A stretch of DNA of 63,382 bases, the filler included, from an uncultured bacterium (GTDB lineage Bacteria > CAZSTA01), in NCBI GenBank assembly GCA_964609495.1. It is 23 parts of 23 records of this genome, joined end to end, with 100 filler letters (N's around TTAATTAATTAA, not from the genome) between each part and the next. Parts side by side here need not be neighbours in the genome. Positions count along the whole stretch, not along the records: positions 42,751 to 45,286 come from CAZSTA010000304.1; 22 more parts are not named here. One strand, written 5' to 3'. A program made the translations under genes and the position numbers. Of the stretch, positions 2,969-45,478 are shown in pieces. Each line of letters begins with the position of its first letter. Position 1 is the stretch's first letter. The notes beneath the pieces were generated by a model. It saw only the letters and a program-made list of their open reading frames with translations, had not been told where the DNA came from and did not search any database.

Positions 2969-3068
2969 NNNNNNNNNNNNNNNNNNNNNNNNNNNNNNNN
3001 NNNNNNNNNNNNTTAATTAATTAANNNNNNNNNNNNNNNNNNNNNNNNNNNNNNNNNNNNNNNNNNNN
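2969..3068. other. artificial contig spacer N44-TTAATTAATTAA-N44 (first of ~22 identical spacers)
   Basis: Identical 100-nt linker with stops in all frames recurs every ~2.5-3 kb. Confidence 0.99.
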
Positions 3069-42750: not shown

Positions 42751-43289
42751 CCTTGGATCTTGTAAATTTCAATTCTGCCGCTAAGGCTGCTTCTGTTTGG
42801 ACTGATGAACAGCTTCTCCAGAGCAATAAGGACTTTCTCGCTAATCTCAAGCCTAAGATAGATTTTGGCGATTTCATCATTGTTCATGGCAGCCCCCGTG
42901 ATCCGATCTGGGAGTATATCTATTATCCTCTAGTAGCTAATATAAATTTTAGCTTCTTCAATAATTCTATCTGCTTCATTGGCCATACCCATTTAGCCGA
43001 ATCGTATGCGAGGTTTATCAATGAGGAAAAGCTTGAATACACCTCGTTTTATGAGAGGGATGGCGGTCGTCTTAAACTAGATATTGAGAACAAGAGATAT
43101 ATATTGAACTCAGGAAGCGTTGGTCAACCTAGAGATGGCAATAGCAAAGCAAGTTTTGGTATATATGATACGGAGGAGATGTATTGGGAAGTGAGAAAAT
43201 TAACCTATCCTATTGAAAAGACTCAGAAGAAGATGAAATCAGCCGATCTACCGCCTATTCTATATGAGAGGTTGGCAGTAGGAAGATGA
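42751..43289 (+). CDS. calcineurin-like metallophosphoesterase, C-terminal part
   Basis: VHGSPRDP.WEY, FIGHTH, NSGSVGQPRDG. Confidence 0.92.
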
Positions 43290-43302
43290 AAGTTTGATAT
43301 AG

Positions 43303-43378
43303 GCGCCCGTAGCTCAAAGGATAGAGCGACGGCCTCCGGAGCCGCAGGTTGGAGGTTCGAATCCTCTCGGGCGCGCCA
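43303..43378 (+). tRNA. tRNA-Arg(CCG)
   Basis: Acceptor stem GCGCCCG/CGGGCGC, anticodon loop CT-CCG-GA, GGTTCGAATCC T-arm, encoded CCA. Confidence 0.96.
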
Positions 43379-43390
43379 AATTGGTATCTC

Positions 43391-43428
43391 CTAGAGGCTG
43401 GCTAGAATTGGCTAGTCTCTAGTTTTTT
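43391..43428 (+). terminator. intrinsic terminator after tRNA-Arg
   Basis: CTAGAGGCTGGC/GCTAGTCTCTAG stem followed by T6. Confidence 0.75.
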
Positions 43429-43436
43429 ATAGGAAG

Positions 43437-45286
43437 ATGCAGATGAGATATATACCGAGAAGGTTGATAGATGAGATCGCTAATAGATCGGATATAATCG
43501 AGATAGTAGGGAGGTATGTAGAGCTTAAGAGGATAGGAAGATCCTTTCGAGGCTTATGTCCCTTTCACGAGGATAAAAATCCCTCCTTCTTCGTAGATCC
43601 TGAGAGGAAGCTCTACCACTGCTTTGGTTGTTCCGCTGGAGGAGATATCTTCACTTTTATCGAAGATATGGAGAATCTGAGCTTTCCTCAAGCTGTGAAG
43701 TGGCTCGCTGATCAGATAGGATTTCCTCCCCTGCTAAATCTGACTCCCAAGGAGAAGGCGAACGAGAGGATCATCGAGTTAAACGAAATCGCTGCCAATT
43801 TCTATCATCAATTTCTCTTTAAGGAGGAGGGAAAGCGGGCTAGAGATTTTCTCGAGAAAAGAGGGATAGCTGAGGATACATTTCGTGAATTCCTCTTGGG
43901 TTGGGTCCCTGCCTTTTCTGGCATAGTTGAGCATGCAAAAAGATTTGGCTTCACCGAGAGATCGCTTTATAAGGCGGGATTGATAGTGGGGAGAAAGGGG
44001 TTGGATTCTTTTCAACAAAGGTTGCTCTTCCCTATCCATAATGATAAGGGAAGGATAGTTGGGTTCGCCGGTCGCGCTTTAGATGAGAAGCTAAATCCTA
44101 AGTATATCAATTCCGCCGGGAGTGATATATTCCGTAAAGGAGAATTGCTATACGGATTAAGTAAAACTCGTCGTTCCTTCAGGAGAAGAGGAGCGATAGT
44201 AGTAGAGGGCTATCTCGATCTTCTAACGCTCTTTCAAGCTGGAATAGATAATGCGGTAGCTATTATGGGGACTGCTCTAACCTCGGGACAGATAAATCTC
44301 CTCAAACGATATACGAAAAGTATATATCTATGTTTAGATTCTGATACCGCTGGATACAATTCTCTTGATAGAATTTCGGCATCGTTAAATGTTTTAAGGA
44401 AGGATAGCAACATATCTCCCTCCTTCAAGGTCATATCTCTTCCCGAGGGCTTGGATCCCGCTGATTTTATCCAATTAAAAGGAAGAGAAGCCTTTATTGA
44501 GCTCGTGAACAAGGCTACTTCTATTTTAGAATTTGAGCTTGAGAGGAGTTTGAGATGTAGAGATATGGATTCCTTAACGGATAAGATGGAGGCAGTTAGA
44601 GAGATAATACCCATAATTTCTGGAGTGAATAGATTGGAGAGCGAGATAGCTGTTTCTCATCTAGCTAAAGCTTTGTCGATCGAGCAAGATGCTATCTTTA
44701 GGGAGATAGAGAGGTCTTCGAATAAAGACAGTCTATCAAAGGAAGAATATCTGGTCGATATATTATGTGAGCTGAGGAATAAGTTATCCTCTGTATCCGG
44801 GTTGAAATCTCGCTTTATTCTTCCCGATCAAACTATCCGTCAGATAGCTACTTGTCAGCCTGAAACATTTGAGGAATTGGAGGCTATAAGGGGGATTGGT
44901 GAGATAAGGCTTGCTAAGTATGGAAGGTTAATTTTAGCTATTCTGATTTGGGATAGATCGGATATTGACAAATTGCTGAAGGAATATCCTGAGGCTTGCA
45001 GATTCGGGATTAGCTATCATAAAACCACTTCTGCTCTCAGCTTAGTTCCATCCCTAATCAATATCATCTATGCGGCGGTGCGGGAGGTTCAAGTAAGAAG
45101 GACTACGCTGGCTAAGATCCTGATCGGCTATGAAAGTAAGATGATCAAGAAAAAGGGATATGATAAGCTTAGATGTTACGGGCGTTTAGAAGGAATGAGC
45201 CAGAATAGTATCCTAGGACTTATAGATGAATTAATAGATAGAGGATATTTTGAATTTACAGATAAGGATATGATAAAACCTAAGAG
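43437..45286 (+). CDS. dnaG: DnaG-type primase with C-terminal HRDC and RQC (RecQ-type) domains (3' truncated)
   Basis: CHC2 finger CPFH..HCFGC, GFAGR..PKYINS, TOPRIM VVEGYLD..GTA..LDSDTAG..DPAD; then HRDC and RQC signatures. Confidence 0.88.
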
Positions 45287-45478
45287 NNNNNNNNNNNNNN
45301 NNNNNNNNNNNNNNNNNNNNNNNNNNNNNNTTAATTAATTAANNNNNNNNNNNNNNNNNNNNNNNNNNNNNNNNNNNNNNNNNNNNGAGACCATATAAAA
45401 TCTAGCTTCAGCTTCAATTTAGAGAGCTAATTTTTGACAGAGCCAAACCAAAAGGGAGGGGGGACGAGAAATAGTGCG

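Follow-up and report, generated by a model that had tools for sequence, protein, structure and literature searches.

The 63,382-nucleotide stretch of DNA analyzed here (the window, filler included), from an uncultured sediment bacterium of the GTDB lineage CAZSTA01 (GenBank assembly GCA_964609495.1), carries at 43437-45286 on its plus strand a gene for an accessory primase of the DnaG family. The organism also has a canonical dnaG, and in this second copy an HRDC domain and an RQC-type winged helix take the place of the DnaB-binding domain. Canonical DnaG reaches the replication fork through a C-terminal domain that binds the replicative helicase DnaB, and it is this domain that has been exchanged. 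The window was joined from 23 contigs of about 2.5-3 kb each, in descending order of size, with stop-in-all-frames linkers at 3013, 6026 and so on to 60868; these linkers are N runs around TTAATTAATTAA, found by pattern scan in 22 regularly spaced copies (0.03 expected), so statements on gene neighborhood that reach across them are invalid. The primase gene lies on one 2536-nt contig, C304, which corresponds to window positions 42752-45286.

The open reading frame at 43437-45286 is open throughout, with 616 residues and no stop. Its frame is as given in the first-pass annotation, but its end is that of the contig, with the N run and linker beginning at 45287. C304 ends with the same 55 nt with which another contig, C325, begins, and that end is common to no other contig. 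Because C325 supplies the four codons by which the frame continues and then a stop, the full protein is about 620 amino acids (aa) long and essentially complete. A second ATG at 43443 is better spaced from an AGGAAG at 43430-43435; this is probably the likelier start and would give a protein of 618 aa.

Primase core and RecQ-type tail

The complete CHC2 zinc finger, catalytic core, Toprim domain and helical bundle read in the first-pass annotation are all recovered as Pfam matches in that order, and the two proposed tail domains follow them:

43437..45286, plus strand: DnaG-HRDC-RQC gene; 3′ end cut, remaining four codons and stop on C325
43455..43721, plus strand: CHC2 zinc ribbon (Zn_ribbon_DnaG), residues 7-95; Pfam PF01807, E 1.7e-33
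43800..44168, plus strand: N-terminal subdomain of the DnaG catalytic core (DNAG_N), residues 122-244; Pfam PF08275, E 2.1e-32
44193..44471, plus strand: Toprim, residues 253-345; Pfam PF13155 and PF13662, with Toprim_2 at 254-345, E 6.6e-19
44529..44690, plus strand: helical bundle closing the primase core, residues 365-418; PF10410, E 1.2e-5, 25.9 bits, cut-off 20.6
44691..44750, plus strand: linker and fusion junction, residues 419-438; no family match
44751..44945, plus strand: HRDC, residues 439-503; PF00570, E 1.5e-12, 47.7 bits, cut-off 23.8
44946..45065, plus strand: linker from HRDC to winged helix, residues 504-543; predicted local distance difference test (pLDDT) 48-69
45066..45254, plus strand: RQC-type winged helix, residues 544-606; PF09382, E 8.3e-9, 35.7 bits, cut-off 23; profile positions 18-78 of 114

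Over the primase part, the NCBIfam dnaG model TIGR01391 (equivalog_domain) scores 389 bits against a cut-off of 283.6, with residues 6-411 spanning profile positions 2-412 of 414. We aligned the protein with 121 canonical DnaGs (120 database matches and the organism's own) and found that 65 of the 71 near-invariant columns, those at least 95% conserved among the 121, are retained. By the same count the zinc ribbon ligands (C41, H44, C62 and C65) are kept, as are the acidic residues of Toprim (E257, D261, D301, D303 and D340), all in columns at least 95% conserved, and the six near-invariant positions that changed did so conservatively (E to D, G to S, Y to F, G to A, P to A and A to S). Identity over the core is 38% to the organism's canonical DnaG and averages 39% (maximum 42%) to the best database matches, a set to which the canonical DnaG has a mean identity of 44%. 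This pattern of conservation indicates that the DnaG catalytic core is intact and under constraint.

Compared with canonical DnaG, the protein has the same zinc ribbon, RNA-polymerase core, Toprim and closing helical bundle in the same order; it differs from the full-length form in the replacement of the helicase-binding C-terminal domain and in being a second copy. The loss of that domain, already suspected, is borne out by a Pfam scan of the protein, in which neither PF08278 nor PF00772 was matched at E≤1. Matches to PF00772 and/or PF08278, some of them weak or below cut-off, were obtained for the organism's canonical DnaG and for three DnaGs of other genomes.

What stands in place of the helicase-binding domain is shared with the C-terminal region of RecQ in both sequence and fold. 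We modeled the 197-residue tail from a 22-sequence alignment and compared the model with the PDB using Foldseek. Its HRDC part (pLDDT 84-98) matches the Deinococcus radiodurans RecQ HRDC (2rhf) with TMt 0.87 and a root-mean-square deviation (rmsd) of 1.2 Å over 70 columns, followed by the Escherichia coli RecQ HRDC (1wud, also TMt 0.87) and then by BLM and WRN. The Foldseek E-values for this domain were no better than 0.018, as the model was searched with both of its domains together; by sequence, the HRDC matches 2rhf in the PDB at E 7.2e-6. A model of the last 102 residues, for which 38 RQC-containing proteins were aligned, has a mean pLDDT of 84 (above 90 from model residue 25 onward), and the eight top-ranking PDB matches to it are without exception catalytic cores of bacterial RecQ (4tmu, 4q47, 4q48, 1oyw, 1oyy, 6crm), with a best E of 4.9e-4, TMq 0.65-0.72 and rmsd 1.3-2.4 Å over 80-84 columns. 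Structure prediction thus recovers the HRDC and RecQ winged-helix folds, and both domains lie where they were first annotated, each over its Pfam cut-off.

Unlike RecQ, the protein has no helicase motor or zinc-binding domain: the Pfam scan gave no DEAD, Helicase_C or RecQ_Zn_bind match. The recQ model TIGR01389 scores 63.9 bits, from the tail alone, against a cut-off of 640, and the model for the RQC-minor-1 DNA-binding protein (NF041107) reaches 23.5 bits of the 115 required. The winged helix also differs from the RQC of RecQ in lacking the last third of the profile, as positions 79-114 (a strand and a helix after the wing) are absent; the protein terminates 14 residues past the match, its end falling inside or just after the wing.

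Elsewhere in the genome, the dnaG model matches two more places in addition to C304, on contigs C159 and C173. A canonical dnaG, whose presence the first-pass annotation had left to be checked, is found on C159: its product has 598 aa, scores 488.8 bits and ends in a PF00772-type C-terminal domain. The neighbors of this dnaG are a gene of the acetokinase family and one for a PD40 beta-propeller protein, and not rpsU or rpoD, so that the rpsU-dnaG-rpoD setting typical of canonical loci is absent from both the accessory gene and the organism's canonical copy. The match on C173 (L017:809-3733, minus strand) is to a 974-aa primase-like protein with a CHC2 zinc ribbon and DUF3854, whose gene adjoins those of an FtsK/NACHT-like ATPase and an HTH_36 protein; these features suggest the primase of an integrated mobile element.

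Integrity of the fusion and its place in the genome

Several observations tell against this account of the gene. It lies on a 2.5-kb contig of a 3.78-Mb genome (G000) that is in 349 contigs and has, at 99.45% completeness, an estimated contamination of 4.26%. In the probable source sample (run X1), the independently assembled contigs, 43057-44700 and 44695-45286, meet at the domain junction with an overlap of only 6 nt, and the bridge across the junction rests on two other runs, X2 and X4. The RQC match is partial, covering profile positions 18-78 of 114, and no orthologue with the DnaG-HRDC-RQC architecture was found in any protein, contig or genome set searched. In a quick maximum-likelihood tree of 52 rows, the primase part sits on a long end branch (1.33, versus 0.65 for the canonical copy), which could reflect relaxed constraint. 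Finally, a terminator-like hairpin ends 8 nt before the first ATG, too close for a separate promoter to fit in between, and a consensus scan found no convincing promoter between the hairpin and the primase start. In the same tree the primase part, although its placement is uncertain, is not sister to the canonical copy; given this and the long branch, it is therefore not a recent duplicate.

For the junction itself, independently assembled contigs of four public metagenome runs were aligned to C304. Run X1, in which 97% of the sampled words occur, is the probable source sample. Run X2 provides a 443-nt contig at 44297-44739 with 0 mismatches, and run X4, a marsh metagenome from another study and year, provides contigs at 44309-44752 and 44732-44987, the first of which has a single A>G difference at 44722, within the linker. 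The X2 and X4 contigs pass 44700 by 39 and 52 nt and overlap the right-hand X1 contig by 45 and 58 nt, respectively, and depth is similar on either side of the junction in each run (5.76/5.32, 3.08/1.7-3.3 and 4.2/3.3-4.7). Run X6, from marine sediment, covers parts of the DnaG half only, and no inference on the tail was drawn from it. A chimera would require two loci sharing a linker of 45-58 nt and equally abundant in three samples, which makes an artefact unlikely, and we consider the domain architecture very probably real.

An artefact would mean that assembly had joined a dnaG-like gene in frame to an unrelated HRDC-RQC gene, or had lost a stop or frameshift. Such errors are to be feared in a short contig from a low-coverage (3-6x) metagenome, and the break of the X1 contigs at the junction and the singleton status of the architecture would fit one, but contigs from two other runs cross the junction with like depth on both sides in all three runs. 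The frame also stays open for 197 codons past the core, in DNA of 39% G+C, linker, HRDC, linker and winged helix follow one another with clean boundaries, and no close donor-like gene for the tail exists among 1.84 billion representative proteins, where the best match has 78.8 bits and 31% identity. Taken with these points, an assembly error is a highly improbable source of the fusion.

Composition and tRNA content both favor C304 being part of genome G000. C304 and C325 have tetranucleotide correlations of 0.92 and 0.94, respectively, with the contigs longer than 20 kb, as compared with a mean of 0.875 and a fifth percentile of 0.74 for random 2.5-kb chunks, and both halves of the primase gene exceed the mean for their respective chunk sizes. 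C304 carries the sole genomic copy of tRNA-Arg(CCG) in a genome where whole-genome ARAGORN prediction gives 44 tRNAs, with 39 of 41 anticodons present once. Metagenome runs from salt marsh and marsh, dated 2019 and 2025, contain nearly identical DNA.

Occurrence of the architecture and source of the tail

Across three protein searches, none of the 390 matches listed combines DnaG and HRDC in one protein. The tail (residues 420-616) found nothing in a word-indexed set of 5.8 billion proteins, and an exhaustive phmmer (HMMER) search of its 197 aa against the 1.84 billion representatives returned 804 matches at E≤1e-3 and none at E≤1e-30, led by the 31%-identical match noted above. A phmmer check found no DnaG part in the best 150 of these 804. 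All 150 have HRDC and/or RQC-like segments, in most cases with the RQC first or with more than one HRDC, and nine that we scanned with Pfam proved to be RecQ helicases or C-terminal fragments of RecQ type. With the whole protein as query (8000 candidates scored), the best 120 of 3994 significant matches include none with HRDC or RQC; these align to about 69% of the query with identities near 40%, and those that are named come mostly from Atribacterota. When residues 330-616 were used, the best 120 of 140 matches comprised 119 canonical DnaGs and one protein with HRDC and PF08378, and none with both DnaG and HRDC.

Searches of contigs and genomes gave the same picture. No relatives of the tail were found in the JGI metagenome contigs or GTDB genome contigs scanned, and in 40 genomes searched with the whole protein no DnaG match extended beyond residue 467. 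A junction query against 400 genomes (about 270 families) gave 39 matches, all in the DnaG part and none reaching the HRDC; the three longest of these alignments are to canonical DnaGs by Pfam. ESM Atlas returned DnaG clusters only (score 0.85), which is uninformative on the fusion. A phylum-level search returned G000 as the only genome, and the 400 compared genomes are related to it at the domain level only. The organism appears to be the sole representative of its phylum in the genome set searched, so an unsampled lineage accounts in part for the lack of orthologues. Because the matches considered are the best of longer lists, the architecture is better described as not found in what was searched than as unique. 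Full-text searching of the literature indicated no primase-HRDC fusion in the titles and abstract openings seen. The impression in the first-pass annotation that no characterized protein has this layout is consistent with these searches of proteins, contigs and 400 genomes, and the protein is an undescribed combination of well-known domains.

The order of the two tail domains was initially described as the reverse of that in RecQ. This holds for canonical RecQ, in which RQC precedes HRDC, but not for two long RecQ forms, P0135 (929 aa) and P0162 (946 aa), which have the layout DEAD-Helicase_C-Zn-RQC-HTH_40-HRDC followed by a further RQC-like winged helix. Their terminal HRDC and winged helix align contiguously with the present tail (28% identity over 184 columns, pairwise E 7e-14), so that the HRDC-then-winged-helix order has a precedent, although both proteins are helicases without a primase domain and their similarity to the tail is distant. 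A terminal cassette of this long RecQ type is a plausible source of the tail, in the sense of resemblance and not of demonstrated descent.

Within the genome, the present gene is the only RQC match, and the only other HRDC, 32% identical to this one, belongs to a helicase on contig C11. This 960-aa protein (L016:1553-4435, plus strand) is the genome's sole RecQ-like helicase and consists of DEAD-Helicase_C, about 185 unassigned residues, RecQ_Zn_bind, HRDC and HTH_40, with no RQC match and with a weak phosphoribosyltransferase match at its end (24 bits against a cut-off of 26.3). The idea that the primase tail supplies a winged helix in trans to this helicase was dropped: the roughly 185 residues before its zinc domain show winged-helix-like similarity of their own, and nothing connects the two genes.

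Proposed function and competing explanations

In RecQ, the winged helix binds duplex DNA and junctions of single- and double-stranded DNA, and in E. coli also the C-terminal tail of SSB, while HRDC domains, which bind single-stranded and branched DNA, adjust the choice of substrate. On the SSB-coated hairpin origins of G4-type phages, DnaG can prime in the absence of DnaB, and the alpha protein of phage P4 is a primase with a C-terminal winged-helix origin-binding domain. The present protein shares with both systems the concept of a Toprim-type primase placed by DNA recognition and not by the replicative helicase; it differs in having no helicase domain, in its RecQ-type DNA-binding domains, and in that no origin or element was found with it.

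On this basis, the canonical DnaG would serve the replisome, and the second primase, with no helicase-docking domain, would not be recruited by the replicative helicase. Its HRDC and winged-helix tail could instead deliver the enzyme to gaps, stalled or regressed forks and hairpins, possibly aided by SSB, and at such structures it may lay RNA primers for restart or gap filling independently of DnaB. Given that the architecture is real, we put a helicase-independent, structure-targeted primase at slightly below an even chance. The narrower proposal of a bacterial repriming enzyme on a DnaG scaffold, which would locate gaps and stalled forks by itself with its RecQ-type HRDC and winged-helix modules, possibly also via SSB, and prime free of DnaB, is one that we rate as unlikely.

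The surroundings of the gene bear on two other explanations. Inside the window its only true neighbors are a truncated open reading frame and the tRNA gene, the latter standing upstream where rpsU might have been expected, as first annotated; a hairpin separates them from the primase start:

42753..43289, plus strand: 5′-truncated open reading frame, 178 aa, weakly metallophosphoesterase-like (Pfam Metallophos_2, E 0.0044, 17.5 bits against a cut-off of 27)
43303..43378, plus strand: tRNA-Arg, anticodon CCG (ARAGORN)
43391..43428, plus strand: terminator-like hairpin, 14 pairs and a T6 run (consensus scan)

Terminator-like sites in the region number 2, as compared with 1.9 expected by chance in the consensus scan. 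No left-hand partner of C304 was found among the contigs of the genome. To the right, the stop codon on C325 is followed by a terminator-like hairpin and then a promoter-like site with an extended -10. C325 in turn overlaps contig C92 by 86 nt, and the 3 mismatches in this overlap suggest that the assembly was interrupted there by strain variation. If these contig links hold, the next gene 3′ of the primase, on the same strand, encodes a type IIG restriction-modification enzyme of about 1240 aa, split over three contigs (C325; C92 = L035:1-1824), with Pfam matches to N6_Mtase, MmeI_Mtase, Eco57I and TaqI_C and PADLOC matches to REase_MTase_IIG (234 bits) and DrmMI (305 bits). Further 3′ are genes for a PAS-GAF-PAS-STAS protein, a two-PLD protein (DrmC-like, 89 bits), a CARDB protein, PmbA/TldD and a VWA protein. 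About 18 kb of chained contigs yielded no gene for an integrase, a relaxase, a replication initiator or a helicase, and the 3′ end of the tRNA (16-25 nt) has no second copy in the genome.

The gene could encode the replication primase of a small islet beside tRNA-Arg that is, or once was, mobile, its tail acting as an origin- or ssi-recognition module much as in the P4-type primases with their C-terminal winged-helix origin-binding domain. Its position directly 3′ of a tRNA, the type IIG gene apparently next to it, and the look of a transcription unit of its own, with terminator-like and promoter-like sites past the stop, would suit such an islet, as would a primase part that is on a long branch and not sister to the resident dnaG and that strongly matches the phage primase family phrog_6444 (398 bits). 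The chained contigs nevertheless contain none of the mobility or replication genes just listed, the tRNA 3′ end is not repeated, composition is typical of the host, and the genes further downstream look like housekeeping genes (the PAS-GAF-STAS sensor and PmbA/TldD); with no left-hand neighbor for C304, half of the context is unseen. We regard the islet as unlikely.

A role in an anti-phage defense locus together with the adjacent type IIG enzyme, for example in sensing or acting on foreign DNA structures, is distinctly improbable. It draws on the REase_MTase_IIG and DrmMI matches of the downstream gene and the DrmC-like protein two genes further on, but a PAS-GAF-STAS sensor gene sits between the PLD and restriction-modification genes, no DISARM helicase was seen in the contigs examined (no search was aimed at DrmA, DrmB or DrmD), and the adjacency comes from contig-end overlaps and would alone be weak evidence. 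The primase itself matches defense reverse-transcriptase models that include DnaG-like domains (RT_UG29, 181 bits; RTasDnaG-like, 135 bits), and its HRDC region matches DpdF (41 bits). These PADLOC matches are limited to generic DnaG or HRDC domains: the match of the RT_UG29/RTasDnaG-like type is confined to the DnaG part (profile positions 3-418 of 2280), the protein scores much better with the canonical dnaG model (389 bits), and no reverse-transcriptase domain was found in the protein by Pfam or in the neighbors examined.

Least credible is a decaying or functionless paralogue that is open by chance, since the long terminal branch, the absence of orthologues in the sets searched and the lack of a clear promoter are set against 65 of 71 near-invariant DnaG positions retained, including all metal and zinc ligands counted, two tail domains modeled confidently and over their Pfam cut-offs, and an intact frame of about 620 codons.

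For now the value of the accessory primase is limited, as it is a single sequence from a fragmented metagenome-derived genome, in an otherwise unsampled phylum, with no relatives found. Its interest lies in the exchange it displays: bacterial DnaG is understood to act through the C-terminal contact with the replicative helicase, and here the domain for that contact has given way to structure-specific modules of RecQ, which indicates that the HRDC and winged-helix pair of RecQ can move as a unit onto another enzyme. The protein would offer a natural test case for whether targeting of a DnaG core to gaps, forks or hairpins is possible without DnaB, and it bears on how bacteria might re-prime after replication blocks. 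If the repriming proposal is true, such a DnaG would be the functional counterpart of eukaryotic PrimPol-type repriming, so far undescribed for the DnaG family.

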